Shown one piece after another: positions 34,549-52,775 of a stretch of DNA of 64,000 nt (positions are counted from its first letter, which is position 1; every line of letters starts with the position of its first letter). The notes under the pieces were generated by a model. The model saw nothing but the letters and a program-made list of their open reading frames with translations. It had not been told where the DNA came from and made no database searches. The position numbers and the translations under genes are program-made. The DNA is from an uncultured Candidatus Saccharibacteria bacterium. Lineage in GTDB: Bacteria > Patescibacteriota > Dojkabacteria > J137. The stretch lies in contig CAYPVU010000010.1 in assembly GCA_964414295.1 (NCBI GenBank), forward strand, positions 6,937-70,936, in the 5' to 3' direction.

Positions 34549-34577
34549 CTAAGCCCGCCTTCGGCGGGCTTTTTTTA
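34549..34577 (+). terminator. Rho-independent terminator after groEL
   Basis: aagcccgcc-ttcg-ggcgggctt followed by a T7 run. Confidence 0.7.
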
Positions 34578-34637
34578 TCCCTCTTAATTTAAAAAGCTTA
34601 ATCAGCTATACTATAAAAAGTATCTAATAAAATAATT

Positions 34638-34964
34638 ATGGGTAATTTATTGTTTGTCTTTTACTGGTGGTATTTTGTACTAGTTAAAGATTTTTGGCAA
34701 AACTATGTAATAGGAAGATTAGTTTATAATCTTAATCTTACAAATACTTTGCCTATGGCTAAGCATATAACTGATCCTTTGTTTCAAGATGATTCAGGAT
34801 TAGGAAAGTCCTTTAGCTTTGTAATAAGATTCATTTGGATAGGCATAGGCTCTTTTATGAGTGTAATTGTTACAATCCCATTTTTATTATTTGGATTATT
34901 TTTATTAATAGTTCCTTTTTTACCAATAATTCAATTTATTAGGTATATTTCGTTTTTAGTATGA
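34638..34964 (+). CDS. Small hydrophobic membrane protein, translationally coupled to the Clp ATPase gene
   Basis: Three to four TM helices; ATGA overlap with the downstream gene. Confidence 0.35.
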   Translation: MGNLLFVFYWWYFVLVKDFWQNYVIGRLVYNLNLTNTLPMAKHITDPLFQDDSGLGKSFSFVIRFIWIGIGSFMSVIVTIPFLLFGLFLLIVPFLPIIQFIRYISFLV

Positions 34965-37540
34965 ATGGAAAAGTCATATTAGCTAAATATAAAAGTGCAC
35001 AGATTACAGTTGATTTTTCTTCACTATCTTTCTTTAAAGGTGATAAATTCTCAATTTATAAACTAGAATTAAATGCTGCTAAATTACTGAATATATTTAC
35101 AGCAATAATTGTATTCGTGCCGTTATTAATACTTATTATGAATGCTGAGTTTTCTATCGGCTCACTTATTAATCCTTCAAACTTATTAGAATATATTCCT
35201 TATTTAGGCATTTACACATTTATATTTGCTAGATTTTTAGGAAGAGATAGAGATAAGTTTGATCATATAATTAAAAATTATAATTTGTTAAAAGTAAGTA
35301 AGGAATTAGAACAAGGTAAATCACTTTCGATAGAAATTACTGAATACATGGATTTCGAAACTCTTTGTTTATTGGATTCTGTACTGGAGGATAAAGATCA
35401 TCCGTTTATTGTAAACATTTGCAGGTTGCTAATAAAGAATAAAGAAATAGAGTACTTTTTAACTAATCGTATAGGCGTAAATTCAGACAGATTTATAGAG
35501 TTATTAAGTAAGAATGCTAATAATCCAAACTTTACATTAAGTAATTCTTATAGAACTTTCTTTTTATATTTGTTTGATGAAGCAATAAAACTGGAATCAA
35601 ACAGAATAAATAAATATGTTCTATTTTTTGTATTAAATAAATACTTTCTAAGAAGTCTTTACTTTGAATTAGGAGTAGGGGAGCTTGAACTAGAAGGCTT
35701 AAGAGTATGGTTTAAAAACGAAACGAAACAAAAGGAATATTATATTAAATGGGAAAAACTTTCAAAATTAAAACCTAAGGGTGATGTAAATAGAGCCTAT
35801 ACATCTAGGGTTACCCCTGTATTAGATGAATATGCTGAAGATTTTACTAAGCAGGCTGCTTTGGGTTTTTTTATGCTATCTGTTGGTAAAGATCAAGAAA
35901 TGAATAAGGTTGTTGAAATTATGGAAAGAGGTAAATCAACTCCATGTTTAATTTTAGGGGAACCTGGTGTGGGTAAAACAAGATTTATAAGACATTTAGC
36001 AACAAGAATGGTGGTTGAGGATGTTCCATCGAGACTATACGATCATAGACTATTAATTGTGGATTTAAATAAGATTTTAACTCAAGTAGGAACAGTAGAT
36101 ATCTTTAAGCAGACTTTGCAAAGAATGTTCGAAGAAGTCCGTTACTCAGGAAATGTAGTTTTGGTTTTAGAAGAATTCAGTCAAATCCTAAATATTAGAG
36201 AAGAAGCAAAACTGGAAGTTGTTAACTTAATTGTAAATGCAGTAGACAGTTTAAATTTAAGAATAATTGCTACTTCTAATAATGCCAGTTATTCTAAATT
36301 TATTAAGCCTCTTAAAAATCTTGCTGCATTATTTGAAGTAGTTAATTTAAAAGAGCCTTCTTCTAATGTTGCATTACAGATTTTAATTGATGAAGTCCCG
36401 AGGGTAGAAAAAAAATATAAGGTTAGTGTAAGAGTTAATGCTTTAAAAAGAATTGTAGAGTTTGCACCAAAGTTTGACCAAGACAGAGTAATGCCAGATA
36501 AAGGCATTGATTTGCTGGAAGAAGCTTGTTTAGCAGCAAAAAATAGAGGATTATCTTTTTTAGATGTATCTACAGTTGATGAAGTCCTATCAGAAAAAGT
36601 AGGGGTAAAAGTAGGTAATTTATCGGAGGCAGAAAGTCAAACTTTAATGTCTTTGGCTACTAAAATGCACGAAAGAGTAATCGGTCAAGATGAAGCTATT
36701 ACAGCCATAACTTCTGCAATAAAAAGATCAAGATCCGGTTTATCTGTAAGCAAAAGACCTATTGCATCCTTTCTTTTTTATGGACCTACTGGAGTGGGTA
36801 AAACAGAGGTGGCAAGAACTTTGGCAGATGTATATTACGGAAGTGAAAATCTTTTAATTAGACTTGATATGTCTGAATACCAAGAAGATCAGAATTTAAA
36901 CAGAATAATTGGATATACAGACGAGAAAGGTAACTTTATTGGTGGACATTTAACTGAATCTGTTAGGTCAAGACCATTCTCGCTTGTATTACTTGATGAG
37001 ATTGAAAAAGCTAATAAAAAAGTATTAGATTTATTCTTACAAGTTCTTGATGAAGGTACACTCACAGACGGTTTAGGCAGAAAGGTAGATTTTACAAATA
37101 CTGTAATTATTATGACATCTAATGTTGGTTCGGACTTAATTGCTAAAGAAATAGTTGAGGGTAAAAAGTACCATGACGTAGAAAAAGATGTTTCTCAAAA
37201 GTTAAGGGAGTATTACAGAATTGAATTTTTAAATAGATTTGATAAATTAATAATGTTTAGACCGCTAAATAGGATTGAAATTGAGCAAATAGTACTTTTA
37301 ATGTTAAAAAAAATAAATGATAATTTAATGCAGAAGGGTATAAGTTTTAGTTGGAACGAAAATACATTGATTGAATTGGCCAATATGGGTTATAGTCAGA
37401 TGTTCGGTGCCAGAGAGTTAAAAAGAGTAGTTCAAGAGAATATTGAGGATAAATTGGCGGATTTAATTATTCAAGGTAAGTTAAGAAGCGGTACAGAAGC
37501 AGTTTTTAATGGATTAACTGTTCAACAAGTGGTAAATTAG
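34961..37540 (+). CDS. Clp/Hsp100-family AAA+ ATPase (two nucleotide-binding domains) with a novel TM-containing N-terminal region
   Basis: D1 Walker A LILGEPGVGKTRF. D2 Walker A FLFYGPTGVGKTEVA, sensor/linker LMSLATKMHERVIGQDEAI and Walker B LVLLDEIEKA. Hydrophobic helix at residues about 42-62. No long ClpB M-domain and no obvious ClpP-docking IGF/LGF loop. Confidence 0.8.
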   Translation: MNGKVILAKYKSAQITVDFSSLSFFKGDKFSIYKLELNAAKLLNIFTAIIVFVPLLILIMNAEFSIGSLINPSNLLEYIPYLGIYTFIFARFLGRDRDKFDHIIKNYNLLKVSKELEQGKSLSIEITEYMDFETLCLLDSVLEDKDHPFIVNICRLLIKNKEIEYFLTNRIGVNSDRFIELLSKNANNPNFTLSNSYRTFFLYLFDEAIKLESNRINKYVLFFVLNKYFLRSLYFELGVGELELEGLRVWFKNETKQKEYYIKWEKLSKLKPKGDVNRAYTSRVTPVLDEYAEDFTKQAALGFFMLSVGKDQEMNKVVEIMERGKSTPCLILGEPGVGKTRFIRHLATRMVVEDVPSRLYDHRLLIVDLNKILTQVGTVDIFKQTLQRMFEEVRYSGNVVLVLEEFSQILNIREEAKLEVVNLIVNAVDSLNLRIIATSNNASYSKFIKPLKNLAALFEVVNLKEPSSNVALQILIDEVPRVEKKYKVSVRVNALKRIVEFAPKFDQDRVMPDKGIDLLEEACLAAKNRGLSFLDVSTVDEVLSEKVGVKVGNLSEAESQTLMSLATKMHERVIGQDEAITAITSAIKRSRSGLSVSKRPIASFLFYGPTGVGKTEVARTLADVYYGSENLLIRLDMSEYQEDQNLNRIIGYTDEKGNFIGGHLTESVRSRPFSLVLLDEIEKANKKVLDLFLQVLDEGTLTDGLGRKVDFTNTVIIMTSNVGSDLIAKEIVEGKKYHDVEKDVSQKLREYYRIEFLNRFDKLIMFRPLNRIEIEQIVLLMLKKINDNLMQKGISFSWNENTLIELANMGYSQMFGARELKRVVQENIEDKLADLIIQGKLRSGTEAVFNGLTVQQVVN

Positions 37541-37559: not shown

Positions 37560-37943
37560 ATGAATAAAAAAAGAGCTTTAGTTTTAACTATTGTTGCATT
37601 ACAAAGTCTTTTTATTACTATGCCCTTATTGGCTCAGGGACTTACTAATGTAAATCAGAACTTTCAAATTCCTAACCCTACCAGATACGGAGACCTTGAA
37701 GATATTATAAATGCAGCTACTTCTTTAATTCGACCTGTATTTATAATAACTTTTGCTGCCATGGTTTTATATGGAGGATGGGTTAGATTAACATCTCAAG
37801 GTAATCCAGATAAAATTAAATCCAGCTCTCAAATTATAGTTGCTGCAATTGTTGGATTTGCAATCGCTGTATTTGCTCCTACAATAGTAGACTTTGCTGG
37901 TAGATTATTAGGGGTAAGCGGAGGTTTAATTGGCGAACGATAA
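37560..37943 (+). CDS. Pilin-like secreted two-helix protein, paralogue 1 (VirB2/TrbC-like architecture)
   Basis: Signal peptide ...PLLA|QG, hydrophobic helix, loop RLTSQGNPDKIK, second hydrophobic helix; 127 aa. Confidence 0.5.
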   Translation: MNKKRALVLTIVALQSLFITMPLLAQGLTNVNQNFQIPNPTRYGDLEDIINAATSLIRPVFIITFAAMVLYGGWVRLTSQGNPDKIKSSSQIIVAAIVGFAIAVFAPTIVDFAGRLLGVSGGLIGER

Positions 37944-37944
37944 T

Positions 37945-38547
37945 ATGAAGAAAGCTTTATTACTAACAATCATTTCTTTTTTAACAATAGGGATTGTTGT
38001 TAATGCACAGACGGGGAGTGGTCAATGCGATGCTCCTTATTATATTCCTTCTGCTTGTCCAGCTCCATATAGGCCGGGAATAAGCGGGGGTTATACTGCA
38101 GACTTAAATTGTCAATTAGAAAAATTTACAGATCCTCAAAGTAACTGTTGTCCAAATAAATGTGTAACTGCAGATGGTTCATCAAATGCTGGAGCGCAAA
38201 ATCCAGACTTATTTTGGGATATAGATGTTTTTGGTACCGTTATGAGAATTAATCCTGACAATACACCTGTTCTTATTAATATACTATTTACCACGGTTTT
38301 AGGCTTAGTATCTTTATATGCTATTGTTAGGGGGATCTATGTTACTGGTGTAAAAAGAACAATGGCTACTACTCCTGACGAAATTGCAGAAATAAATAAA
38401 GAACTTACAAACCTTATTATAGGTGCAGCTCTTTGTTGGGGGTTCATAATCTTAATACAAGTGGTTGCAAACTTCTTAGGTGTTGGTTCTTTAAGCAGTT
38501 TAGATTTTAGTAGCGGAGATTCCGGTACTGTTATTATTGTAAATTAA
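37945..38547 (+). CDS. Pilin-like secreted protein, paralogue 2 (Cys-rich variable region)
   Basis: Start set at MKKALLL, immediately after the upstream stop. Signal peptide ...VNA|QT; eight Cys in the variable segment; two hydrophobic helices. Confidence 0.45.
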   Translation: MKKALLLTIISFLTIGIVVNAQTGSGQCDAPYYIPSACPAPYRPGISGGYTADLNCQLEKFTDPQSNCCPNKCVTADGSSNAGAQNPDLFWDIDVFGTVMRINPDNTPVLINILFTTVLGLVSLYAIVRGIYVTGVKRTMATTPDEIAEINKELTNLIIGAALCWGFIILIQVVANFLGVGSLSSLDFSSGDSGTVIIVN

Positions 38548-39113
38548 TGAAAAAATTTATTATTGTATCTTTATTAATTTTGTTTCTTTCTCCAATTACA
38601 ATCTTTGCTCAAGATAGGTCAGGAGGGAGTGCAAATTCAACTACCTCTACACAAGATATTGATGATGAAATTGGGTTAAGAGAAATTAGAATTCCTATTT
38701 TTAGTAGTTTTATAGATTTTGATACTGAGAATGCAAGTATTTTTAGTTGGATATCGTTTATCGGATCTTTAGCTACAATTGGCTTAGTAGTTTTTTGGAT
38801 ATTTTTATTAGTTAAAGCAGGTGTAAAGGGAATGCAAAGCCAAGGAAATGCTGAGAACTTAACTGGGGCATTTAAGCAGGTGCAATCCGTATTGATTGGG
38901 GCCGCTGTAACGCTTTTCTTTCCATTTGTTTTGAGTTTAATAGGACTCTTTTTTGGTATAGGTACTATTTTTAGCTGGCCAAAGATGTTTCAATTATGCG
39001 ATAAGTCATCAAATCCAAATGGATTTGACTTTTATTTTCAATATTTAATCAGTATTGGATCAGAAGGCGATGAAGCTGCCGCTGAAAGCGCTTGTAATCC
39101 ACTAGGAACATAA
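38547..39113 (+). CDS. Pilin-like secreted protein, paralogue 3
   Basis: TAATG overlap. Signal peptide ...IFA|QD; helix, loop MQSQGNAENL, helix; C-terminal Cys pair. Confidence 0.45.
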   Translation: MKKFIIVSLLILFLSPITIFAQDRSGGSANSTTSTQDIDDEIGLREIRIPIFSSFIDFDTENASIFSWISFIGSLATIGLVVFWIFLLVKAGVKGMQSQGNAENLTGAFKQVQSVLIGAAVTLFFPFVLSLIGLFFGIGTIFSWPKMFQLCDKSSNPNGFDFYFQYLISIGSEGDEAAAESACNPLGT

Positions 39114-39116
39114 TTT

Positions 39117-39551
39117 ATGAGAAAAATTATATTAATCATTTTTATTTCTTTACTAAGTTTAATTCCGGTGAGTATTAAAGCTCAATCTGCATCTGAATTC
39201 CTTCCTTGTAATCAGTACGATCCAAGTGTATTTGATGCTTGCGGTACAAATGTAAATGATCAAGTAACTAATTTAATAAAGGTTGCAATTTCTGCGGTTT
39301 TTGCTTTAATAGTATTGTACGGTATTTTCTTGATAATTAAAGCAGCACTTACTATAATAAGAAGCAATGGAGACCCAGGACAGGTGCAAAGTGGAGCAGA
39401 TATTTTAAGAGGTGTATACATTGGTATTGGAATTATTTTTGTAGGTTTGATAGGATTAATAATCGTTATTGCATTTTTTGGTGCAGAGGGTATTTTGAGT
39501 ACTAATGTTAATACACCAGGAAATACAGTAATACCATTAATTACAAATTAA
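39117..39551 (+). CDS. Pilin-like secreted protein, paralogue 4
   Basis: Signal peptide ...IKA|QS; Cys pair; helix-loop-helix core IKAALTIIRSNGDPGQVQSG...FVGLIGLIIVIAFFGAEG. Confidence 0.5.
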   Translation: MRKIILIIFISLLSLIPVSIKAQSASEFLPCNQYDPSVFDACGTNVNDQVTNLIKVAISAVFALIVLYGIFLIIKAALTIIRSNGDPGQVQSGADILRGVYIGIGIIFVGLIGLIIVIAFFGAEGILSTNVNTPGNTVIPLITN

Positions 39552-39573
39552 TTTAATTTATTAAATAAATCTT

Positions 39574-40068
39574 ATGTTTAAAAATAAGACTTTAGTAGCA
39601 GTAATGATGGGAGCTTTTCTATTGGCAGCGCCATTAGTATCTCCTTTATTAACTGCAAAAGCAGATAACTTAATCTGTACAGTTTTCCCATTTATCAATA
39701 GTGTTACAGCTTTTGGTATTAATGCATTATGTTCAGAAGGTGGAATTAGTGCAGATACAACAAGTAATACAATTAGAAGTACATTCAACTTAATTGTATC
39801 TTTAATCTTTGTTGCAATTATTATCTTCTCAATTTACGTAATAATTAAAGCAGCTATTAAATACATTAGAAGTGAAGGTGATCCAGCTAAAATTGAAGAA
39901 GCTCAAAAAGCAATTAAATCTGTATTCATTGGTATTGCAGCTTTATTTGTAGGATTAATCGGAATTATTATTGTTATTGCATTCTTTGGTGCAGGTGGAG
40001 CATTAAACTCGGATCAAAATGCAGTAAATACAAGTCCATTATTAAACTCAATCTTAAACGGAAATTAA
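39574..40068 (+). CDS. Pilin-like secreted protein, paralogue 5
   Basis: Core nearly identical to paralogue 4: IKAAIKYIRSEGDPAKIEEAQK...FVGLIGIIIVIAFFGAGG. Confidence 0.5.
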   Translation: MFKNKTLVAVMMGAFLLAAPLVSPLLTAKADNLICTVFPFINSVTAFGINALCSEGGISADTTSNTIRSTFNLIVSLIFVAIIIFSIYVIIKAAIKYIRSEGDPAKIEEAQKAIKSVFIGIAALFVGLIGIIIVIAFFGAGGALNSDQNAVNTSPLLNSILNGN

Positions 40069-40084
40069 TTAATTTTAATTTCTT

Positions 40085-40113
40085 AAAGCCCGCCTTTTGG
40101 CGGGCTTTTTTTT
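40085..40113 (+). terminator. Rho-independent hairpin within the pilin-like array (possible attenuator after paralogue 5)
   Basis: aaagcccgcc-tttt-ggcgggcttt followed by a T8 run. Confidence 0.6.
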
Positions 40114-40177
40114 ATCTTCTTGATAAGCTATTATCTTTAATCTATAGTGTATTGAGTATTAATGTTATTATCTTCTC

Positions 40178-40990
40178 ATGAATAAAAAGAAAAAATTAGT
40201 TTATTTACTTCTTTTGCTTAATCTCTTTTTTGGTCAATTTGCGGTAGTACATGCACAATTACAGACCTTTGATTTCTCCGCCAATAATCCAGAAAGCTAC
40301 CAATGTTTTAATAAAGAAACAGGAGAGATATTAGATATACCCGTTGAGCCAACTCCGGACGAATTTGGTAATTACTATTGTAATAATGGAGGAACTAGAG
40401 TTATAGCTCAATTAAAACCTCCTACACTCCAGCAATTAGAAGTTTGGTTTGTTAGAATTTTATACGCAATTTGGGGTCTTGTGGCTTCTTTATCCTTTCT
40501 ATTCTTAGTTAAGTTAGGATACGAATACACAATATCTAGAGGGGACCCTACAAAGATAACAGAAGTAAGAAAAAGAATTGTAAGTTATTTAATAGGTTTT
40601 GCTCTTGTATTTTTAGCTGTCCCAATATTAACTACAGTATTTAGATTGTTAGGCATTAATACTAATGCGCAGTGTTATAACGTTAATATGCCTGGCTTTA
40701 GATTCTTTTATGCTACATTATGTACCGACCCTAAGGGAGTGATCGCATCTAAATTTGCCTCTAATCCGTGTCAGGCATTTATTGATGGAGAAGCGCCAGA
40801 AGGTATTACTTGTAGCGGAACTCCTTATGCGGGTGGTGCACCAGTTACATGTGGTGTAGTTGGTTTAGCTTCAATTTCATTAACATGCCAAGTTCAAGAA
40901 GGAGATAGCCCAGGTGCATCAACGTGGTGTAGAACATCAACTTTATTTGGCTTTTGCTCATCATCGTGTAACCCATCGGGTTGTCCATAA
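40178..40990 (+). CDS. Pilin-like secreted protein, paralogue 6, with extended Cys-rich C-terminal domain
   Basis: Signal peptide ...VHA|QL; helix-loop ISRGDPTKITEVRK-helix; about 120-aa C-terminal tail with 12 Cys. Confidence 0.45.
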   Translation: MNKKKKLVYLLLLLNLFFGQFAVVHAQLQTFDFSANNPESYQCFNKETGEILDIPVEPTPDEFGNYYCNNGGTRVIAQLKPPTLQQLEVWFVRILYAIWGLVASLSFLFLVKLGYEYTISRGDPTKITEVRKRIVSYLIGFALVFLAVPILTTVFRLLGINTNAQCYNVNMPGFRFFYATLCTDPKGVIASKFASNPCQAFIDGEAPEGITCSGTPYAGGAPVTCGVVGLASISLTCQVQEGDSPGASTWCRTSTLFGFCSSSCNPSGCP

Positions 40991-42489
40991 TGATTCAATT
41001 TATTAGTTTAAAAAAAAATAACGTTCAAATTAATTTATTGGAAAGTTCAATAGATTTGAACACGCTTGAAGATCTTGTTAAATTACTTAATAGGGATTCT
41101 AGTATTGATATTGAATTAGCATTTAAAATTAATAAAGCTAATAGATCAGAGCAGTTTTTAATAAATAAGACTTCAATTTTAAAAGAGGGAAATGTAATAG
41201 AAGAGAATTCTTTTTTTAATCTAGTAAAAGCTGAACTAGGAATTATTTTAGATGCTAATATTCTAAAAAGTAGATTCCTAGAAGCAAGTAGTTTAAATGA
41301 TCTAGAAGCTTCTTTCAATTCTTTAAACTTAACAACTGATCCAGAGTTAGAAACTAAGATAAACTCTAAAACTCAACAACAAACAGAATTAAAAACTCAA
41401 CTTCTTAATACTTTAGATGAAGATCAAAAGAGTAAATTTACTAGATTAGAAGAGGTTACTCAGAGGATTGCATCTATTCAGGTTCAGGTAGATTTTTACC
41501 AAAATGAAAAGAAAATAAAAGAAGAACTTAATAGTAATATAAAAAAATATAAGATTGATAAAGAAAATATCAATCAAATGCTTCAATCCGTAGAGTTGTT
41601 AATAGAAAATAAAGAATCGTTAAATTTAAAACTAAAGTCCTTTGAGCAATTTAGTGATTCTTACGATAAAGTTAAGGAATTAAAAGCTCAAAAAATCAAC
41701 TATCTGAACTCTAAATTATCTATAAGACATTCACCTGGATCCTCAATTTTAGAAGACGATATTAAGGAAGCTGAAAATAAATCTAGTTCACTAAATTTAT
41801 TCTTAGTAATTCCAATTATAAATTTATTGATAACATTTGTAGTTTTTTTAGTTACTTATAATGCAGCGGTACTTTTAATCGGAATCCTTTTTACTGTATT
41901 CTTAATGATTATTTATATTGTATCTAGATTTTTTAAAGATTCATTAGAAGATGTTGAAGAATTAAATAATAAAGCATTTTCTCCCCAAGCGGATTCTAAA
42001 GAAGGTGTTGCAGAAGTAGAAGACCCAAATACTCAATTATTTATAAATAGTGCATGGGCTAAAGCAATAAAAGATGAATTAGAAGTTGTAGATGAAAATA
42101 TTACAAAAAGCTTAAATGGGAAGTCTTATGAGGCTCTAAAGCAGGATCTTACAAATTTAGATTTAAATATAGAAAAAGAAAATAATAAATTGGAAGAGTT
42201 AACTCAAAAAGCAATAACCTCAGATGAGTACTATAAAAAAAGAAGAGAAATAGATATTTTAAAAATCGAAAAAGAGAATCTGGAATATGGTTTAAAGTTA
42301 GAGCCTACCATAAATAATAAAATACAAGATTTATCAAAAGAAATAGAAAATTTAAAGCTATTAACAGAAATGGGACAGAAAACTAATGCTTTAGTGCCCG
42401 TTTTTATCAAATTTAGTGAGAATTTGCCTCAAATTGAGCAAATTAAGCAAATAATTAGTGCACAGGTAATTCTCGTAGGGTTAAATTAA
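40981..42489 (+). CDS. Coiled-coil membrane protein (central TM hairpin)
   Basis: Long heptad-rich N- and C-terminal regions flank an approximately 45-aa hydrophobic segment LFLVIPIINLLITFVVFLVTYNAAVLLIGILFTVFLMIIYIV; overlaps the upstream gene by 10 nt. Confidence 0.45.
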   Translation: MSIMIQFISLKKNNVQINLLESSIDLNTLEDLVKLLNRDSSIDIELAFKINKANRSEQFLINKTSILKEGNVIEENSFFNLVKAELGIILDANILKSRFLEASSLNDLEASFNSLNLTTDPELETKINSKTQQQTELKTQLLNTLDEDQKSKFTRLEEVTQRIASIQVQVDFYQNEKKIKEELNSNIKKYKIDKENINQMLQSVELLIENKESLNLKLKSFEQFSDSYDKVKELKAQKINYLNSKLSIRHSPGSSILEDDIKEAENKSSSLNLFLVIPIINLLITFVVFLVTYNAAVLLIGILFTVFLMIIYIVSRFFKDSLEDVEELNNKAFSPQADSKEGVAEVEDPNTQLFINSAWAKAIKDELEVVDENITKSLNGKSYEALKQDLTNLDLNIEKENNKLEELTQKAITSDEYYKKRREIDILKIEKENLEYGLKLEPTINNKIQDLSKEIENLKLLTEMGQKTNALVPVFIKFSENLPQIEQIKQIISAQVILVGLN

Positions 42490-42504
42490 AGTTATAATCT
42501 AGTT

Positions 42505-43290
42505 ATGTCTAATAATACCTCAGGTAATCAGAATAATGGAGAAAATAACGGATCTAATAATTCGTTTAGCTACCCACAGCCTGTTTATCCTGGAAGTATG
42601 GCAAACCCATTTAACGGGTATTACTATTATCCTTCTAATATGCAACAACCACAAAATAATAGAGATTACATATTAAAGATGAGAGAGCAGGAGGCTAATA
42701 AAATTGTTCCAGAAAAAAAAGGAATGCCTTGGTCTTCAATTATTTTAAAGCCTAATTTAGTATTCGAAACACAAAATCCTAACGAAAAGGTTTTTGTTTT
42801 AGTAAGGGCACATTGGTTAACTAATCTAGGATGGTTTTTAAGAAATCTTTTCTTAGCAATTCTTCCATTTATAGTATTCTCTTTACTAGAATATTTCGGA
42901 ATTCGAATTGATTTAACCTTTATAGGCAGTAAAGCTTCTACAATCTTAGGACTGCTTTATTATTCTTTTATATTTACAAGTATAGTAAGTAACTTTATTG
43001 ACTGGTATTTTGACCCATTTATAGTTACTGATATTCGTATAATGGATTATGACTATAAGCCTTATTCAAATTATAAAGTTTCCGAAGTTAACTTACAGGA
43101 TATTCAAGAAGTAAAGGAAAGATCTGCAGGTTTAATTGGAGATATCTTTAATTTTGGAAACGTTTATATCTATAGTGCCAGCGATAGAACAGAAATGATT
43201 TGTTCTAACGTGCCTTCACCTACAAAAGTTAGAGATATTATTATCGATTTATCTACCGTAGCTAAAACATATAAATATGACAATCTCTGA
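42505..43290 (+). CDS. Membrane protein with Asn/Gln-rich N-terminus, TM pair and bacterial PH-like (bPH_2/YdbS-like) C-domain (tentative)
   Basis: Two TM helices followed by a region DIRIMDYDYKPYSNYKVSEVNLQDIQEVKERSAGLIGDIFNFGNVYIY resembling bPH_2 proteins. Confidence 0.4.
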   Translation: MSNNTSGNQNNGENNGSNNSFSYPQPVYPGSMANPFNGYYYYPSNMQQPQNNRDYILKMREQEANKIVPEKKGMPWSSIILKPNLVFETQNPNEKVFVLVRAHWLTNLGWFLRNLFLAILPFIVFSLLEYFGIRIDLTFIGSKASTILGLLYYSFIFTSIVSNFIDWYFDPFIVTDIRIMDYDYKPYSNYKVSEVNLQDIQEVKERSAGLIGDIFNFGNVYIYSASDRTEMICSNVPSPTKVRDIIIDLSTVAKTYKYDNL

Positions 43291-43498
43291 ACTATTAACA
43301 CCTGAAATAATTGAGTTTATTAAAGTTATTGCAATTATTATTGGATTAGTACATTTATTAGCTGGATTTATATTAGTATTCCAGACTTTTAGAATGAATC
43401 GAATTATAAAAACCCCGAATGCTCCTATTTTTAGTATTATTGCAATTGTCTACATTGCTGTATTAATGGCTACGTTAATTTTAATCTTGAGTGCATAG
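43277..43498 (+). CDS. Small two-TM membrane protein
   Basis: 73 aa, two hydrophobic helices; overlaps the upstream gene by 14 nt. Confidence 0.35.
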   Translation: MTISELLTPEIIEFIKVIAIIIGLVHLLAGFILVFQTFRMNRIIKTPNAPIFSIIAIVYIAVLMATLILILSA

Positions 43499-43554: not shown

Positions 43555-46053
43555 ATGCATTTAAGAGCAGATTTTATTGTAGGAACTCAAACCTCTAATT
43601 CATGGTCAGGAGTATATGGTTTTAAACCAGAAGACTCTATTGAGCCGCTAGAACTTTTTGCCATTATTAAGTTGGAATCCCTTACCAGCGAAGACAGATT
43701 AGAGGCTCTGGCTAAAATGTTTTTAGATGAACTCCAAAACTATCTATTTAACGAAGGTAAAGAGGGAAACTATATAATTAGACTAGAAAATGCTGTTTGG
43801 AAAATGAAATCCAAAATGGAGTTGCTTTTATCTTCAGATGAAAGATATTCCCAAAATGGATTAGATATAGAAATTGCTCTTACTTTATTCGATAAGAATT
43901 TTCTTTACTTAGGTGTAATAGGCGAAAGCAAGATCTTTATTAAAAGAGAGGATAAATTTGTAGAGCTTTCTCAAGGTTTATCTGATGCAAACATGATGGG
44001 CTTCTTAAAAACAGGAAGTCTAGAACTGGAAGAAGGGGATAGACTGGTTTTAGCAACCAATACAGCTGCAGAACAAGGGCTGGGAAGTATAGAGGCTTCT
44101 GTTAATAATTTAAATATTCAAGCATTGTCATCATTAACTAGTGGAAAAGGTACTGCAGTACTACTTTTAGCAGATGAAAAAGATAATTGGACAGAAAAAG
44201 AAATTATAGATGAAGAGTTTATTCCAGAAACTCCTATTAATTTAGAAACTGAAGATAATCAACATCAAGAATCTGCCAAATTTATACCTATTCAAGAAGA
44301 AGATTTTGAAGATAATACCGAATATATTGCTACAGAGTCAAACGAAGAAGAGTTAAACCTACAGCCATTAGAAGATAAAATTATTCCCGTAGAGAGGGAG
44401 GAAGTTGTTTTAAATACTAATATAACAGAATTGAATGAAAATGAATTACCAAAAGGAAAGGTCTTATTAAATTCAGTAGGGAGTAAATTATCTTCAAGTA
44501 TGAGGGTAGGGGCAAGTAAACTTACTGATTTACGCACGAGAATGAAAAGAGTTCCCCTAGAAAACGCAACTGAATTTAATAATGACATAGATAATTCAGT
44601 AGAGATTAAAGAATCAAAAGTAGGTTCAGTACTCACTAAAACTGCACCGATTCTAAATTCTATACAATCCTTTGTGCAAAACAAGTTAATGCCTTTCTTT
44701 AAAAAAAGTAATAAAACATATATTAAATATTTAAGAGATTTTGTTTTACTTGTAGTTGGATTAATTAAAAAATTCGTGGCATGGTTTAAAAAAGAATTTA
44801 TTGGTGGAGGAGTTGATGATAGAAGGAATATTTTTGAAAAAGCAAAAAAAAGAAAAAGAAATAGAATTATTTTAATTGTACTTGTAGTTATTTTGGCAAT
44901 ATTAATTGTATCAGCGATTAATAATAGAAATGCACAATTAAGGGAACAGGAAAGAATCGATACTGCTAGATCAAATGTAGATCAATATAAATCTGAACTA
45001 GACAATTTAGTAAGACAAGCAAATAGTAATCTTAATGATACTCAGAAAAATACTGTAATAGATCAGTTAGATAAACTAAACACTAGTTTAGAAACACAAA
45101 AAAGACAGGATTTATTTATAGATGAAATTGCAAATTATCAAACAACCATTACCAAAACAAAAGATAAAGTTTTAGGTGTTGTTGGCTTTACGGACCCACA
45201 AATGGTTGCAGATATTGGGAAAATCTATTCAGATGCAAATTTAATAGATATGGTTTATACGGATGGTAATTTATATGTGGGAGATAAGGCAAGAAATGCA
45301 ATATATCAAGTAGGAACAAATATAAATTCTCAGGTATCTCAATTTGCAACTGGTTTAAATGCCCCATATACAATGACAGTAAATGCGGCAGGAGACATTA
45401 TTTTCTTTGATTCAGATAGTACAAGTGCTGTAGGTAGAATATTTGTGGGGGAAAATGGCAGAATTGAAAGATATCCTGGATTAGCTCCTGCAGTTATTGG
45501 CACTGTTACTAAATCAGCAGTTTTTAGTGGTAATGATGCCTTATATGAATTACATCAAAATCATCAGCAGATATATAAAAGAGAAAAAGCAGGTGAAGAT
45601 TATACTAGTGGAGGAGCAGTATATAACACACAAAATCCACCAAACTGGAAAACAGACCCAGAGTTGGGAAGTGCAATAGATATAGATATCCCTTACGAGA
45701 TTTATGTTTTGATAAGAGGTAAAGGATTAAGAAGATATTTAGCTGGGGAAGCAAATACAATCTCTAAAGAAACCTTTGTAAATACTTCTCAAAAAGATAT
45801 TGACTCATTAGCATCTGCCACTGCATTTGACATAGATGGTAAACTATTGGCAGTTGCTGATCCAACAAACAGAAGAGTACTTTTATTCAGAATTGAAGAT
45901 AATGATGCTAAAACTTTGGCATACGAGAAATCTTATGTATATAGAGGTAATGACTCTACAACCTTTAAAAATATTAAAGAAATAGTTGTGAATGAATCAA
46001 GTAAGTATATCTTTGTATTGGATGGCACAGGAATAATAAGATTAGATATTTAA
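43555..46053 (+). CDS. Large bitopic membrane protein with cytoplasmic N-domain and C-terminal beta-propeller/NHL-like repeat region
   Basis: TM NRIILIVLVVILAILIVSAI near residue 440. C-terminal repeats (DGNLYVGDKARNAIYQV; GDIIFFDSDSTSAVGRIFV; LAVADPTNRRVLLF) suggest a beta-propeller. Confidence 0.45.
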   Translation: MHLRADFIVGTQTSNSWSGVYGFKPEDSIEPLELFAIIKLESLTSEDRLEALAKMFLDELQNYLFNEGKEGNYIIRLENAVWKMKSKMELLLSSDERYSQNGLDIEIALTLFDKNFLYLGVIGESKIFIKREDKFVELSQGLSDANMMGFLKTGSLELEEGDRLVLATNTAAEQGLGSIEASVNNLNIQALSSLTSGKGTAVLLLADEKDNWTEKEIIDEEFIPETPINLETEDNQHQESAKFIPIQEEDFEDNTEYIATESNEEELNLQPLEDKIIPVEREEVVLNTNITELNENELPKGKVLLNSVGSKLSSSMRVGASKLTDLRTRMKRVPLENATEFNNDIDNSVEIKESKVGSVLTKTAPILNSIQSFVQNKLMPFFKKSNKTYIKYLRDFVLLVVGLIKKFVAWFKKEFIGGGVDDRRNIFEKAKKRKRNRIILIVLVVILAILIVSAINNRNAQLREQERIDTARSNVDQYKSELDNLVRQANSNLNDTQKNTVIDQLDKLNTSLETQKRQDLFIDEIANYQTTITKTKDKVLGVVGFTDPQMVADIGKIYSDANLIDMVYTDGNLYVGDKARNAIYQVGTNINSQVSQFATGLNAPYTMTVNAAGDIIFFDSDSTSAVGRIFVGENGRIERYPGLAPAVIGTVTKSAVFSGNDALYELHQNHQQIYKREKAGEDYTSGGAVYNTQNPPNWKTDPELGSAIDIDIPYEIYVLIRGKGLRRYLAGEANTISKETFVNTSQKDIDSLASATAFDIDGKLLAVADPTNRRVLLFRIEDNDAKTLAYEKSYVYRGNDSTTFKNIKEIVVNESSKYIFVLDGTGIIRLDI

Positions 46054-46055
46054 AC

Positions 46056-46511
46056 ATGAAAGTCCTAGCCAGTAATAAAAAGGCCTATTTTGATTTTGAT
46101 ATACTTGAAAATATTGTAGCAGGTATTAGTCTAGTTGGATGGGAAGTAAAATCAATTAAAGCAGGCAAAATAAGTTTAAATGGTGCTTACATTAAAGTAT
46201 TAAATGGAGAGATGTACTTAGAGAATGCAGTTGTGCCTTCGCTTAAATACACTCCTAACGTTTCTCAGCATCAAGAAAGCAGAAAAAGGAAGTTGTTGCT
46301 TACTAAAAGACAAATCTCTGTATTAACTGCAAATGCTAAACAACCCGGAAATACAATTGTCCCCTTAGAAGTAGTAGAAAATGATTCCGGATTAATAAAA
46401 GTAAATGTAGCATTAGTAAAGGGTAGAAAAAAGTTTGATAAAAGAGAGAAGTTAAAAGAAAAAGATATTCAGAAACGAATTAATTTTGAAAGAAAAAAGT
46501 ATAATATTTAA
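46056..46511 (+). CDS. smpB: SsrA-binding protein SmpB
   Basis: VAGISLVGWEVKSIKAGKISLNGAYI...RKRKLLLTKRQI, the SmpB signature; 151 aa. Confidence 0.85.
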   Translation: MKVLASNKKAYFDFDILENIVAGISLVGWEVKSIKAGKISLNGAYIKVLNGEMYLENAVVPSLKYTPNVSQHQESRKRKLLLTKRQISVLTANAKQPGNTIVPLEVVENDSGLIKVNVALVKGRKKFDKREKLKEKDIQKRINFERKKYNI

Positions 46512-46513
46512 AT

Positions 46514-47065
46514 ATGAGCAACTCCAATCAGACTTTAAAACAAAATAATGAAGAAAATTTAAAATTAGTAGAAAGATTTGGATTTAAATTTTTTGGATAT
46601 GATGAGAATTCTTTTACTCTTGTAGTTGCTCCAAATGGTCAAATAGTACCCTTGAATGTGGCGTATGAGTTTGTACAAACTCAAATTGCTAATTCTCAAA
46701 CATTTTCTGGAGGCGGAATGGAAGGAATGCCAAATATGCCAACTATGCCCACACTCCCCGAAGCTAAAGTTGAATCAAAGGTTGAGTCAGCTATAGAAAA
46801 TAGGATAGAGAAAAAACAAGAGAGTACAAATGATAATAATCAAACCCAGCAAACAGTATCTGCAACTCCTAAACAGGAGCCTGCTAAAAAAACTGAATTA
46901 GAATCTCCTTATGGAGATGGATTTAAAACTCCTATTAATCCTGCTTATATCGAAAAGGCTTTAGACTATATAAAAAGAAATAGCAAAAAATCATTAAGCT
47001 CTACTTCTAAATGGCTTTCTGTTCAATTTGAGAAATTTATTTCCGAACAGAATTCTGGCAAATAA
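46514..47065 (+). CDS. Hypothetical protein (Met/Pro-rich linker)
   Basis: No signal peptide or TM helix; no recognisable motif. Confidence 0.35.
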   Translation: MSNSNQTLKQNNEENLKLVERFGFKFFGYDENSFTLVVAPNGQIVPLNVAYEFVQTQIANSQTFSGGGMEGMPNMPTMPTLPEAKVESKVESAIENRIEKKQESTNDNNQTQQTVSATPKQEPAKKTELESPYGDGFKTPINPAYIEKALDYIKRNSKKSLSSTSKWLSVQFEKFISEQNSGK

Positions 47066-47124: not shown

Positions 47125-49584
47125 ATGTTTTCAGGACAGAATATTACAAATTTCAACACTACAGTTGATACTTCATGGGTTCAAGGAGCCGTAATCTTTT
47201 TACTTGTTCTACTTGTAGTATTAGTTGTCTTGGGCATAGTAATTGCCAAGTTTTTACAGAACTTTAAACAAGAAGTTTTAAAGAAAAAGGGGTTAAATCT
47301 TGTTTTTTATGAAGTAAAACTCCCCAAATCTAATGATGTAGAAATTAGAGCTGCAGAGCAAATGTTCACTGGTCTTATTGGTATAGGAGAGGAATTAAAA
47401 GGGTTTAAAAAGTTTGTAGGGGCAAGAAAGTTTGTAAGCTTTGAGATAGTTGCATTTAAAGAATCAATTAAGTTTTATGTTGTTTGTCCAAAAAGTATTT
47501 CTAATATTGTAGATAGGCAAATTAATGGAACCTACCCATTAGCAGAAATTAATCAGGTAAAGGAATATAATCTATTTCCAGATGGAGCATTTACTTCTTA
47601 TACATCTCTTAAGTTAGAAAAAGATACTAAAATTCCTTTTCAAACATATGAGGAACTTGCCGTAGATTCAATTGGAACAATAACTGATATTTTTAGTAAA
47701 CTACAAGAAAACGAAGGTGCTGTCTTTCAGGTTGTAATAACACCTGCCGGATCTGGTTGGAGAAATGAAGCTAAGTCTTTAGTTAAAAAGCTTAGAGAAC
47801 CAGCTAAAGAAGGAGAGACTGCTTCTAAGCCTAAATTTAATGATGATACTATTTCTTTAATTGATAAAAAAGCAGATAAATCTGGATTTTATACAGATAT
47901 AAGAATTGTATGTGTTTCCGATACAAAATTTGGTGCTGATTCTAATTTAGCCAATATTTTAAGTGTATTTGATCAATTCTTAAAAGAAGCAGGGAATCGA
48001 TTTAAGAAAACAAAAGAATCTGATTTAGGAAATTTTGCAGAAGACGTTATTTATAGAATTCCTAGGCTTTCAATGGTCTTAAATACTGCTGAACTGGCAA
48101 CTATTTTCCATTTCCCAAATAAAAATGTAACTTCTCCTCATATTAAATGGATGCTTGCTAAAAAGGCCCCGGCTCCAGATTTTGTAGCAAGTAATTACCA
48201 ACAAGACTATATGTATATTGGTAGAAACTCATTTAGAGGTCAATTTAAAGAAATATTCATAAAACCTGAAGATAGATTAAGGCATATGTATGTAATAGGT
48301 CAGACTGGTACTGGTAAATCGGGTTTTATGTCTGGAATGATGATAAGAGATATGAAACTAGGCCATGGTTGTGGTTATATTGACCCCCACGGCACAGATG
48401 CGGAGAAAATATTACAACAGGTTCCTCCTGAAAGAGTTGAAGATGTAATAATTTTTGATCCATCTGATTTAGAAAGACCTGTAGGATTGAACATGCTAGA
48501 GTTTTCAAATCCTGCACAACGTACACTTGTTACAAACGAAATGTTAAATATATTTGATACTTTGTATAACCTTAAAACAACCGGAGGTCCAATGTTTGAA
48601 CAGTACTTTAGGTATGCAATTATGCTTTTAACAGATGATGTAGAATCAGGCTCTACATTAATGGAGATCCCTAAGATCTTTGCAGATGACGGTTATAGAA
48701 ACTATAAACTTTCAAAATGTACCGACCAGGAAGTTATAGACTTCTGGAGAAAACAGGCAGAACAAGCAACAGGCGATGTGGGGTTAAAAAATGTAACCCC
48801 ATATGTTGTTTCTAAACTTGCACCATTTTTAACTAATCAATATGTAAGACCTATTATTGCACAGCAAACTTCTACAATAAATTTTAGAAAGATAATGGAT
48901 GAAGGCAAGATCCTGATTGTAAAACTTACTAAAGGTAGAATTGGAGATTTAAACGCTGCACTACTAGGTATGATTATTATTGGTAAGTTACTAATTGCTG
49001 CTTTAGAAAGAGAAGGTACAGATGAAAAATCAAGAAATCCATTTTATCTGTACATTGATGAGTTTCAAAACTATCTTACAGATGGAATTATGACAATTTT
49101 AGCTGAAGCTAGAAAGTACAGACTTTCCTTAACAATGGGACATCAATTCATAGGTCAGTTAACAAGAGAAGGTGGAAATACAAAAATTAGGGATGCTGTA
49201 TTTGGTAATGTAGGAAACAAAGCTATTTTTAGAGTAGGTGAGGATGATGCTGCATTCTTAAAGAAGGTTATTGGTGAAGGTTTTGAAGAACTTGATTTAC
49301 AGCAAATAGAAAACTTTAATTTTTATCTAAAAATGTTAGCAGACGGTAAGCCAACTCCAGCTTTTACAGCAAGATCTTTTTATGGTGATTCTAAATACGA
49401 TATGATAGGTTCATCAAGCTCTCAGATTGCCGATGTAGCTAAACAAATTTCTAGACTTCGTTATGGTAAAGATAGAAACATAATTGAAAATGAGATTAAA
49501 TTAAGAGGTACATTTATTAAAGAAAAAACAGAGGAAGAAAAGAAACCTGCTTCCTTATTTGGTGGCGGATTAGGCGGATTCTAG
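47125..49584 (+). CDS. Membrane-anchored P-loop ATPase of the FtsK/HerA/VirB4 (DUF87-like) superfamily
   Basis: N-terminal TM VIFLLVLLVVLVVLGIVIA. Walker A HMYVIGQTGTGKSGF...GYIDPHG, Walker B FYLYIDEFQNY, and the downstream ARKYRLSLTMGHQFIGQL block typical of VirB4/TraC/HerA-like ATPases. Confidence 0.65.
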   Translation: MFSGQNITNFNTTVDTSWVQGAVIFLLVLLVVLVVLGIVIAKFLQNFKQEVLKKKGLNLVFYEVKLPKSNDVEIRAAEQMFTGLIGIGEELKGFKKFVGARKFVSFEIVAFKESIKFYVVCPKSISNIVDRQINGTYPLAEINQVKEYNLFPDGAFTSYTSLKLEKDTKIPFQTYEELAVDSIGTITDIFSKLQENEGAVFQVVITPAGSGWRNEAKSLVKKLREPAKEGETASKPKFNDDTISLIDKKADKSGFYTDIRIVCVSDTKFGADSNLANILSVFDQFLKEAGNRFKKTKESDLGNFAEDVIYRIPRLSMVLNTAELATIFHFPNKNVTSPHIKWMLAKKAPAPDFVASNYQQDYMYIGRNSFRGQFKEIFIKPEDRLRHMYVIGQTGTGKSGFMSGMMIRDMKLGHGCGYIDPHGTDAEKILQQVPPERVEDVIIFDPSDLERPVGLNMLEFSNPAQRTLVTNEMLNIFDTLYNLKTTGGPMFEQYFRYAIMLLTDDVESGSTLMEIPKIFADDGYRNYKLSKCTDQEVIDFWRKQAEQATGDVGLKNVTPYVVSKLAPFLTNQYVRPIIAQQTSTINFRKIMDEGKILIVKLTKGRIGDLNAALLGMIIIGKLLIAALEREGTDEKSRNPFYLYIDEFQNYLTDGIMTILAEARKYRLSLTMGHQFIGQLTREGGNTKIRDAVFGNVGNKAIFRVGEDDAAFLKKVIGEGFEELDLQQIENFNFYLKMLADGKPTPAFTARSFYGDSKYDMIGSSSSQIADVAKQISRLRYGKDRNIIENEIKLRGTFIKEKTEEEKKPASLFGGGLGGF

Positions 49585-50310: not shown

Positions 50311-50384
50311 AGGCCTGTAGCTCAGCTGGTTAGAGCACGGTTCTTATAAAGCCGGGGTCCGCAGTTCAAGTCTGCGCAGGCCTA
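50311..50384 (+). tRNA. tRNA-Ile with UAU anticodon
   Basis: Cloverleaf AGGCCTG/CAGGCCT acceptor, discriminator A, anticodon stem CGGTT/AGCCG, loop CTTATAA (34-36 = TAT). 5' half nearly identical to the tRNA-Ile(GAU) in the rRNA spacer. Confidence 0.65.
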
Positions 50385-50481: not shown

Positions 50482-51153
50482 ATGCTTAAACTAAATTCAT
50501 TATTAAAATTGTCCTTAATCTTGTTTGCAAGCTTATTAATTCCAAGCTTTTTATCACTATTTAAAATTTCTTTTGATGAATATATTGCAGCACAAAAGGG
50601 GCAGGGTAAGGTTCAGGGAGCAAGTGTAGTAAATGTTCGTACTGTAAATGGAAGAACACCTGACGGGGAAGAACAGTCTGTTATAGTTAATGTTAATCTG
50701 CCACGAATTGGGTCTATTAGAAATCTAAGTGAAAGGCCCTTCGCTTTCCCAAATGCAAAAGCTAATACTGAATCTCCTTTAGTTAATCTCCAAGCACCAT
50801 TATCCTACCCTGATGGCCCAAATAATCCTGTTTATATAATTTCTAAGGATGGTGGAAGAGGAGGGGATTCCTTTTTATTTGCATACGGCGGACTAAAAGG
50901 TAATTATCTATCTTTCTACAACGGAAACAATTACGATATGAATGATGTTAGGATTCAAATAAAATGGTCTAATGGAAACATTGAATATACAAGTATTTAT
51001 TCTACACAGCAAATTCAAAGAAAATTAGGATTTTACGTTGCCGTAAATAACTCTTCTGAGGCTAGTATCCCGTATAATCCCCAAATGAGGATTAAGGAAT
51101 TTTTAGTAAGATTTAAGGATAATGCGGGAATGGAGTATATTGCAGAATTTTAA
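50482..51153 (+). CDS. Hypothetical secreted protein
   Basis: Signal peptide; Gly/Asn-rich; no motif. Confidence 0.4.
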   Translation: MLKLNSLLKLSLILFASLLIPSFLSLFKISFDEYIAAQKGQGKVQGASVVNVRTVNGRTPDGEEQSVIVNVNLPRIGSIRNLSERPFAFPNAKANTESPLVNLQAPLSYPDGPNNPVYIISKDGGRGGDSFLFAYGGLKGNYLSFYNGNNYDMNDVRIQIKWSNGNIEYTSIYSTQQIQRKLGFYVAVNNSSEASIPYNPQMRIKEFLVRFKDNAGMEYIAEF

Positions 51154-52544: not shown

Positions 52545-52619
52545 CGCGGGGTAGAGCAGTGGCAGCTCGTCAGGCTCATAACCTGAAGGTCGTGCGTTCG
52601 AATCGTACCCCCGCAACCA
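52545..52619 (+). tRNA. tRNA-Met (CAU), initiator type
   Basis: Anticodon loop CTCATAA; C1 x A72 unpaired end (CGCGGGG vs CCCCGCA), which is characteristic of bacterial initiator tRNA; CCA encoded. Confidence 0.7.
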
Positions 52620-52701: not shown

Positions 52702-52775
52702 GTCAGGGTAGCTCAGAAGGTTAGAGCACAGGATTCATAAACCTGAGGTCGAGGGTTCGATTCCCTCCCCTGATA
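52702..52775 (+). tRNA. tRNA-Met (CAU), elongator type (alternatively an Ile2-type CAU tRNA)
   Basis: Cloverleaf GTCAGGG/CCCTGAT, anticodon loop TTCATAA, T-loop TTCGATT. Confidence 0.65.

Follow-up and report, generated by a model that had tools for sequence, protein, structure and literature searches.

In the 64,000-nt stretch of contig CAYPVU010000010.1 analysed here (assembly GCA_964414295.1; the whole stretch is called the window), six consecutive, co-directional open reading frames (ORFs) on the + strand at 37560-40990 encode small exported proteins that belong to the Pfam family PF18895 (T4SS_pilin, "Type IV secretion system pilin"). We consider it probable that the six genes encode pilin-like subunits, distantly related to VirB2/TrbC, of a chromosomal type IV secretion system (T4SS) of the Patescibacteria type in Candidatus Dojkabacteria. 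McLean et al. 2020 (PMC7427843) described a conserved array of 4-6 signal-peptide genes by the T4SS of Saccharibacteria, found across the Candidate Phyla Radiation, and named it the "Sec-secreted array" of possible effectors. Wang et al. 2023 (PMC10633639) re-annotated this array as pilins and reported that the six pilins and the T4SS are essential in Southlakia. Quinonero-Coronel et al. 2025 (PMC12102498) collected 441 arrays of 2-11 pilins, with a mean identity of 25% and a maximum of 54%, often near virB4, and Dojkabacteria are in their dataset. The published pattern was also found here, namely tandem divergent pilins in a chromosomal location without a relaxase and near a VirB4-like ATPase that probably belongs to the Patescibacteria clade. 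The array is thus a published kind of system rediscovered in another class, the Dojkabacteria.

The six genes are called pilins 1 to 6 in their order along the strand. PF18895, with a gathering cut-off of 26.6 bits, was matched above this value by pilin 6 (36.5 bits, E = 5e-9) and pilin 1 (29.5 bits) and below it by pilin 5 (22.2 bits), pilin 2 (19.5 bits, E = 0.001) and pilin 3 (15.8 bits, E = 0.015). Pilin 4 had no Pfam match by itself and was tied to pilin 5 by BLASTP (E = 2e-12). Among the homologues, 52 of 60 matched PF18895, and a profile search found 12,655 relatives at E <= 0.001 among 1.84 billion cluster representatives, which indicates that the family is very large. The Pfam E-values of 5e-9 and 8e-7, the presence of orthologues in at least 15 genomes and the ratios of non-synonymous to synonymous substitution rates (dN/dS) of 0.01-0.20 indicate that the six genes are real. 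The relation to VirB2 is supported through the curation of PF18895 and through the literature, in which the same arrays of Saccharibacteria were read as VirB2-like pilins (PMC10633639, PMC12102498, PMC12857230), direct similarity to canonical VirB2 being undetectable here. An indirect bridge is provided by two PF18895 proteins of Southlakia, which also match PF04956 (TrbC/VirB2) at E ~1e-6. The NCBIfam family NF045849, a pilin-like conjugal transfer protein of integrative and conjugative elements (ICEs) of Mycoplasma, gave a weak match to the cores of pilins 2 and 5 (E = 7e-4, 19 bits).

Signal peptides and topology were judged from hydropathy, the -3/-1 sites and the hairpins in AlphaFold2 (AF2) models of pilins 5 and 6. 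All six proteins start with a basic n-region (2-4 K/R in the first eight residues) and a hydrophobic h-region, followed by a small-x-Ala site (LLA|Q, VNA|Q, IFA|Q, IKA|Q, AKA|D and VHA|Q for pilins 1-6), which agreed with the Sec-type signal peptides proposed by an earlier, sequence-only reading of this DNA. That reading had also placed the cleavage in front of a Gln, which applies to five of the six proteins, the site of pilin 5 being AKA|D, and a mature N-terminal Gln is frequent among the orthologues and not invariant. No lipobox was present in any of the six leaders, and the class III prepilin motif G|[FMLIV]xxxE was absent from the first 35 residues of every paralogue. Type IV and Flp pilins have a short leader that ends in G and is cut by the prepilin peptidase, and a hydrophobic segment with E5; the earlier conclusion that the six proteins are not type IV pilins is therefore retained. 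Beyond the signal peptide, each product has two more hydrophobic segments, which give the PF18895 layout of a signal peptide and about 70 residues of helix, short loop and helix. The AF2 hairpins of pilins 5 and 6 bear out the two helices and short loop that had been read from the sequence. The loop motif [ST]-x-G-[DN]-[PA] was found in five of the six paralogues and is degenerate in paralogue 2, just as had been described.

The six products have 127, 200, 188, 144, 164 and 270 aa, and a public gene caller gave identical sizes in a close strain. From pilin 1 to pilin 6 the junctions are a 1-nt gap, a TAATG overlap and gaps of 3 nt, 22 nt and 109 nt; the description of the genes as abutting, overlapping or separated by 4-nt gaps suits part of these junctions but not the 22-nt gap or the 109-nt gap, which contains a strong terminator-like hairpin. 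Pilin 1 (37560-37943, 127 aa) has a signal peptide at residues 1-25 (LLA|QG), a helix, the loop RLTSQGNPDK and a second helix, no Cys and a conserved IPNPTRY..LEDIINA segment; its orthologues in 6 genomes are 48-79% identical, and its dN/dS is 0.040. Pilin 2 (37945-38547, 200 aa from the ATG at 37945; an upstream TTG at 37930 gives 205 aa in the ORF listing) has the site VNA|QT and two helices joined by the degenerate loop VKRTMATTPDE. Its N-terminal Cys-rich ectodomain has 6 Cys, the positions of which are kept in the orthologues (dN/dS 0.046). Pilin 3 (38547-39113, 188 aa; IFA|QD), with the loop MQSQGNAEN between its helices, carries a conserved C-terminal tail, FSWPKMF..C...YYFQ...C in the orthologue alignment, which bears a Cys pair, and it has the dN/dS of 0.011. 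Pilin 4 (39117-39551, 144 aa; IKA|QS) has a Cys pair (LPC....C) and the loop IRSNGDPGQ between its helices; it forms a separate orthogroup present in 5 genomes (dN/dS 0.085).

Pilin 5 (39574-40068, 164 aa) has the site AKA|DN, which is A|Q in most orthologues, the Cys pair C35/C53 and a highly conserved core (IKAAIKYIRSEGDPAKIEEAQKAIKSVFIG). It is the best-conserved paralogue, with a core 55-94% identical to that of its orthologues, and its AF2 model (predicted local distance difference test score, pLDDT, of 77) shows a long helical hairpin at 60-99/104-138. Pilin 6 (40178-40990, 270 aa; VHA|QL) has the loop ISRGDPTK between its helices, a small beta N-domain with 2 Cys and, at the C-terminus, a domain of about 105 aa that holds 10 Cys; 9 Cys are invariant across 67 homologues. 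Its AF2 model (pLDDT 83.7) has the hairpin at 84-119/124-157, its stop overlaps the ATG of the downstream gene (TAATG), and the name given by NCBI to two of its orthologues is "pilin". The sequence-only reading had put a Cys pair or cluster between the leader and the first helix of each protein. This was only partly right, as Cys is absent from paralogue 1, paralogue 3 has its pair in the C-terminal tail, and paralogue 6 carries 2 Cys in its N-terminal part and 10 in its C-terminal part.

The orthology of the six genes was compared by best hits in the loci L081, L002, L083, L084, L085 and L086, where the identity of the ATPase described below goes down to 66-70%. Collinear one-to-one orthology in the order 1-2-3-4-5-6 was observed in L081, L002, L084 and L085. 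In L083 the order is kept and pilin 5 occurs twice in tandem, as two almost identical copies (9354-9875 and 10001-10522), and L086 has no pilin 4. The pairwise core identity among the paralogues is 15-41%. Within the orthogroups, the helix-loop-helix core is best conserved, the signal peptides, outer N-segments and tails are more variable, and every orthogroup is marked by conserved motifs and a Cys pattern of its own. Against the close strain L087 the pilins gave a dN/dS of 0.011-0.197, similar to that of the neighbouring genes. The six pilins are thus six ancient, collinear and individually conserved orthogroups under purifying selection. Pilins 4 and 5 had been taken as near-identical copies from a recent duplication; they share 42% identity over 99 aa in BLASTP and 41% over the core, and the duplication is old, since both orthogroups are already separate in the genomes with an ATPase 66-70% identical.

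Between pilins 5 and 6, an intrinsic-terminator-like hairpin with a T-run lies at 40085-40116 on the + strand (hairpin 40085-40108, a 10-bp stem with 7 G-C), and a promoter-like TTGATA-17-TATAGT follows at 40120-40148 on the same strand, ahead of pilin 6. A hairpin at this junction, with differing stem sequences, was found in L001, L002, L010, L011 and L012 and was absent in L003, L007, L009, L015 and L016. The stem in the window (AAGCCCGCC...GGCGGGCTT) almost matches that of a hairpin after GroEL at 34551-34580. The synonymous rate (dS) of pilin 5 against L087 was 0.16, the lowest of 18 genes compared (0.27-0.92 for the rest of the block), and its dN/dS of 0.197 was the highest among the pilins. 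Such a low dS may reflect either constrained synonymous sites due to high expression or a recent exchange, and the codon third-position composition of pilin 5 was only slightly GroEL-like and not decisive. Taken together, its conservation, its low dS and the positionally conserved terminator suggest that pilin 5 is likely the major subunit.

The array is followed 6.1 kb downstream of its end by a VirB4-like T4SS ATPase (47125-49584, + strand, 819 aa) with an N-terminal transmembrane (TM) segment, the Walker A motif GQTGTGKS at 392 and the Walker B motif YLYIDE at 641. Its domain matches are weak (TrwB_AAD_bind, TraG-D_C and T4SS-DNA_transf), its orthologues carry a precomputed PF26449, and a phmmer search of the ATPase against PDB found nothing. 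Full-length homologues of 23-26% identity are encoded on plasmids of Bacillus, Staphylococcus, Streptomyces, Clostridium, haloarchaea and Sulfolobus, and this is the range of hosts of the mating pair formation type FATA (MPF-FATA) that Quinonero-Coronel et al. 2025 (PMC12102498) reported for the VirB4 clade of Patescibacteria. The ATPase has 538 relatives in Patescibacteria genomes, of which the more distant ones (35-42%) occur throughout Patescibacteria. Its closest proteins from metagenome-assembled genomes are 88% identical (L001, labelled uncultured Candidatus Saccharibacteria) and 84% identical (L002, Candidatus Dojkabacteria); most of the next-closest relatives carry the label Candidatus Dojkabacteria, and "Saccharibacteria" looks like a wrong label in several cases.

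The linkage of array and ATPase, proposed for checking in related genomes, held up: all Dojkabacteria loci that extend far enough upstream have the same block, including both. The order of this block is GroES, GroEL, a 108-aa protein, a ClpB-like protein, the pilin array, a coiled-coil membrane protein of about 500 aa, a SpoIID-domain protein (in more distant genomes only), a two-TM protein of about 260 aa, a 73-aa DUF5657 protein, a single-pass protein of about 830 aa, SmpB, a protein of about 185 aa and the ATPase. In other classes, Dojkabacteria-trained and broader pilin hidden Markov models detected pilins close to the ATPase (within 10 kb) in only 3 of 64 loci. This suggests that the tight linkage is class-specific or that the pilins of those classes have diverged beyond detection. 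The window is chromosomal, as it also encodes FtsA, FtsZ, sigma-70, ParAB, IleRS, GroES/EL, SmpB, FtsH, PolA, a tmRNA and an rRNA operon, and these are housekeeping surroundings rather than phage or bacteriocin loci. No relaxase family was found by domain family scans in the window ORFs of at least 100 aa.

In the explanation that we favour, the precursors would be inserted via Sec/YidC and then cut by signal peptidase I, usually exposing an N-terminal Gln able to become pyroglutamate. The mature pilin is predicted to be a membrane helical hairpin with both ends outside and the [K/R]-x-x-[ST]-x-G-[DN]-P loop in the cytoplasm, and its Cys-bearing outer extensions may be stabilised by DsbB-dependent disulfides. 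The VirB4-like ATPase would pull the subunits out of the membrane and polymerise them into one surface filament or conduit, of which the six pilins may be non-redundant components. Pilin 5 would likely be the major subunit of this structure, and pilins 2, 3 and 6, which carry large ectodomains rich in Cys, probably act as minor, tip or adhesive subunits in contact with the host cell. Because no relaxase was found in the window, the role of the system is probably host interaction or transport rather than conjugation. Genes for signal peptidase I (13671-14291, -), DsbB (21864-22319, -), YidC (25516-26370, +) and a sortase (2655-3518, -) are present in the window, and the first three are consistent with the export, cleavage and disulfide formation of Cys-bearing pilins.

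Several observations weigh against this explanation. The comparison with VirB2/TrbC pilins made in the sequence-only reading stands by way of PF18895 and the literature on the same arrays, but no direct similarity to canonical VirB2 was detected by any of the methods used. PF04956 matched pilin 1 with E = 0.31 and 11.7 bits (cut-off 27.9), and the hhalign comparison of the pilin profile with an Agrobacterium-type VirB2 profile of 40 sequences gave a probability of 1.3%, at a low power owing to the narrow VirB2 profile (53-85% identity to its first sequence). The hmmsearch of the pilin profile against the PDB sequences returned no pilin and only designed proteins at E > 2. Foldseek with the pilin 5 model, the comparison with known pilin structures that had been proposed as a check, found no match in PDB with E < 5 and ranked the T-pilus VirB2 (8exh) 19th (E = 10). 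The cluster contains nothing recognisable as a polytopic VirB6-like protein, a VirB8-like protein or a cell-wall hydrolase. The case for pilin 5 as the major subunit is built only on its conservation, its low dS and a predicted terminator, which about half of the more distant relatives lack. Monoderm (MPF-FATA) T4SSs are normally without VirB2, and to our knowledge a pilus has never been observed for any Patescibacteria T4SS. As for the cyclisation that the comparison with VirB2 had implied, no evidence of it was obtained for the array; the long Cys-rich extensions on three paralogues make a head-to-tail cyclisation unlikely. The window encodes one S26 peptidase (13671-14291), not classified further, and none of its genes was recognised as a TraF-like maturase.

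Some of these points also agree with a different role, in which the six proteins never leave the membrane and serve as small integral subunits of the translocon of the T4SS or of its stalk, taking the place of the missing parts of the VirB3/VirB6/VirB8 type, with no extended extracellular pilus being formed. The cluster has no recognised polytopic VirB6 or VirB8 candidate, pili are generally lacking in monoderm T4SSs (PMC12102498), a related "pilin-like" protein exists in the ICEs of wall-less Mycoplasma, and the fused six-module polypeptides described below are awkward for a one-by-one extraction of subunits. We nevertheless regard this role as unlikely, since the large, conserved and disulfide-rich extracellular domains of pilins 2, 3 and 6 fit surface exposure, the two Southlakia members also match TrbC/VirB2, which are true pilus subunits, and the terminator and the low dS suggest one subunit in excess, as in a filament. 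It is quite improbable that the paralogues form a variation cassette of interchangeable alternative major pilins for antigenic or host-range variation, an idea that was raised in the survey of Patescibacteria arrays (PMC12102498) and, as antigenically variable subunits, in the sequence-only reading. The paralogue identity of only 15-41%, the faster evolution of the outer segments than of the cores and the recent tandem duplicate of pilin 5 in L083 would suit such a cassette. However, the collinear one-to-one orthologues extend across Dojkabacteria down to 66% ATPase identity, the motifs and Cys patterns specific to each orthogroup are conserved, the dN/dS of 0.01-0.20 is not above that of the neighbouring genes, and, L083 aside, neither gene conversion nor copy-number turnover was apparent. 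Orthology, conserved motifs, dN/dS and the terminator together argue against a cassette and favour six differentiated subunits.

The two other explanations make the proteins something else than parts of a secretion structure. McLean et al. 2020 proposed a pertussis-toxin-like reading, in which Sec-exported soluble effectors or toxin subunits are released through the T4SS; the signal peptides and the T4SS-adjacent position (PMC7427843) agree with it, and three array genes are up-regulated in the stable TM7x symbiosis. For the array in the window we judge it very improbable, as two strongly hydrophobic helices remain in every mature protein, the proteins match the pilin family PF18895, the leaders are of the signal peptidase I type without a lipobox, and the similarity to Ptx S1 was just 11% in the original paper (PMC7427843). 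Hardly credible, finally, is a chance neighbourhood of the ATPase and unrelated small membrane proteins of a holin-, bacteriocin- or immunity-like kind. Marginal and non-significant matches, such as that to Phage_holin_3_6 (best E 0.053, in 10 of 60 members), point that way, against which stand the significant PF18895 matches, the invariant class-wide linkage to the ATPase block and a chromosomal housekeeping context rather than phage or bacteriocin loci.

The favoured explanation, in which the six genes encode pilin-like T4SS subunits, can be compared with several known systems. One is the array of Candidatus Southlakia epibionticum ML1 (SEML1_0014-0019; PMC10633639, reviewed in PMC12857230), which likewise has six tandem, divergent PF18895 signal-peptide proteins and a chromosomal T4SS with a VirB4-like ATPase and no relaxase. 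Southlakia belongs to Saccharimonadia, in contrast to the Dojkabacteria studied here. Its cluster contains a recognisable TrbL/VirB6 and two pilins that match PF04956, neither of which was seen in the Dojkabacteria window. The essentiality for epibiotic growth was obtained by transposon sequencing only in Southlakia, and the Dojkabacteria block is placed between GroEL/ClpB-like genes and SmpB, unlike that of Southlakia. The array of Nanosynbacter lyticus TM7x (PMC7427843) has a similar arrangement, with four to six small signal-peptide genes flanked by VirB4/VirB6 genes; it was read as effectors with signal peptidase II leaders, while the Dojkabacteria array encodes two-helix membrane proteins with leaders of the signal peptidase I type. 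The six genes at 15-41% core identity fit the pattern of the surveyed Patescibacteria arrays (PMC12102498). That survey puts its emphasis on Microgenomatia and on Saccharimonadia, with a proposed versatility in host range or antigenicity, and it does not contain the collinear orthogroups, selection, terminator or fused poly-pilins.

The canonical pilins VirB2, TrbC, TrwL and TraA (PF04956 and PF05513) come from diderm bacteria and show no significant sequence, profile or Foldseek similarity to the array. Canonical VirB2/TrbC form an extracellular, lipid-bound pilus, and those of the P, T and H types are cyclised head to tail. The array differs in its monoderm host, in having six paralogues instead of one and in its long Cys-rich N- or C-terminal ectodomains, and it gave no evidence of cyclisation or of a TraF-type maturase. 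The Mbov_0395 family (NF045849, Mycoplasma ICEs) is also monoderm and of the MPF-FATA type, and its weak matches to pilins 2 and 5 are co-linear over the helix-loop-helix; the scores are far under the 40-bit cut-off, and its members are encoded by a lone gene of a mobile element as opposed to a chromosomal six-gene array. Bartonella and Anaplasma (cited in PMC12102498) also have tandem VirB2-type copies and are host-dependent bacteria. Their arrays are tied to antigenic variation, in contrast to the Dojkabacteria copies, each of which is ancient, conserved in its own right and subject to purifying selection.

Fused pilins were also observed. In some Patescibacteria (P0318, P0402, P0405, P0372 and others), single polypeptides of 445-555 aa consist of one signal peptide, a Cys pair and 5-6 tandem pilin modules, with a period of about 85 aa and a Y(I/V)TSxGDEE loop in each module. 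Examples lie at L090:76-1743, L091:1777-3435 and L092:9751-11256, inside arrays of ordinary single pilin genes, and 3-6 pilin modules were present in about 10 of the best 150 profile matches. We know of no description of fused VirB2-type pilins. The collinear orthogroups and the fused six-module pilins elsewhere hint at a heteromeric structure with fixed subunit roles. It is possible, although we hold it as a tentative idea with the doubts prevailing, that the six pilins are obligate and non-interchangeable partners of one heteromeric VirB2-type pilus or conduit, with pilin 5 as backbone and the others as fixed minor, tip or base subunits, and that this composition has been stable since the origin of Dojkabacteria. 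If true, the heteromeric structure and the fused modules would imply an end-to-end joining of neighbouring subunits on the outer face, a mode of assembly unknown for conjugative pili.

The comparative results speak for a heteromeric structure and count against antigenic variation, and they do not present a new kind of system. Whether a VirB2-type pilus exists in a monoderm is a question raised by recent reviews, and the comparative results are leads towards it, namely the six collinear orthogroups, a candidate major subunit and its terminator, the loss of the SpoIID-like gene from the cluster in the sub-lineage of the window and the fused six-module pilins. In the sole species tested, Southlakia, the Patescibacteria T4SS is essential for epibiotic growth (PMC10633639).

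The lost gene encodes a SpoIID-domain (PF08486) protein of about 590 aa and was found at L083:12646-14427, L084:12896-14671, L085:12768-14552 and L086:12922-14736. It is plausible that this protein is a VirB1-like wall hydrolase. The gene is missing at the corresponding position (42489-42505) in the window and in L001, L002, L081 and L087, and no SpoIID match was obtained in the scanned window ORFs of at least 100 aa.

The other genes of the block are all on the + strand. A ClpB/ClpC-like double-AAA+ protein with an N-terminal membrane region (34961-37540; Pfam AAA_2 and ClpB_D2-small) ends 20 nt before pilin 1, and a gene for a 108-aa membrane protein precedes it with a 4-nt overlap with its start (pair 34638-37540). 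In Dojkabacteria this pair is always directly upstream of pilin 1, and it could be part of the T4SS. Downstream of the array, a 499-aa coiled-coil protein (40990-42489) with a central hydrophobic hairpin at 265-317 is syntenic in all Dojkabacteria loci; it had no significant family match in Pfam or NCBIfam and is the fastest-evolving protein of the block, with 39-41% identity where the ATPase has 84-88%. It is followed by a 261-aa protein (42505-43290) in conserved synteny, which has a low-complexity N-terminus, 2 TM segments and a weak bacterial-PH-like C-terminus (bPH_2 E = 0.011, below the cut-off), and by a 73-aa two-TM DUF5657 protein (43277-43498; PF18901 25.2 bits, cut-off 25), which is also called in relatives.

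An 832-aa membrane protein (43555-46053) has a TM segment at 433-460 and a C-terminal repeat or propeller-like ectodomain; it is in conserved synteny and has no Pfam family. It was considered as a VirB6 candidate and rejected, being single-pass. A 183-aa soluble protein (46514-47065), also in conserved synteny and without a family match, is encoded directly upstream of the ATPase. TrsD-like proteins occupy this position in other Patescibacteria (PMC12102498); the 183-aa protein showed no similarity to the ATPase N-terminus, and the name "TrsD-like" stays unproven for it. In all Dojkabacteria examined, SmpB (46056-46511 in the window) is located inside the T4SS block, between the genes of the 832-aa and 183-aa proteins, and the tmRNA (24985-25441), the partner of SmpB, lies about 21 kb upstream of it. 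Just downstream of the T4SS block, a XerC/D-type tyrosine recombinase (51150-52019, -) is found among tRNAs at 50311-50384, 52545-52616 and 52702-52775. The GC skew of the window tracks the coding strand and gave no origin position. Further upstream, the ORF at 4950-5804 joins a HEPN domain and a nucleotidyltransferase domain, and it resembles a fused HEPN/MNT toxin-antitoxin-like module.

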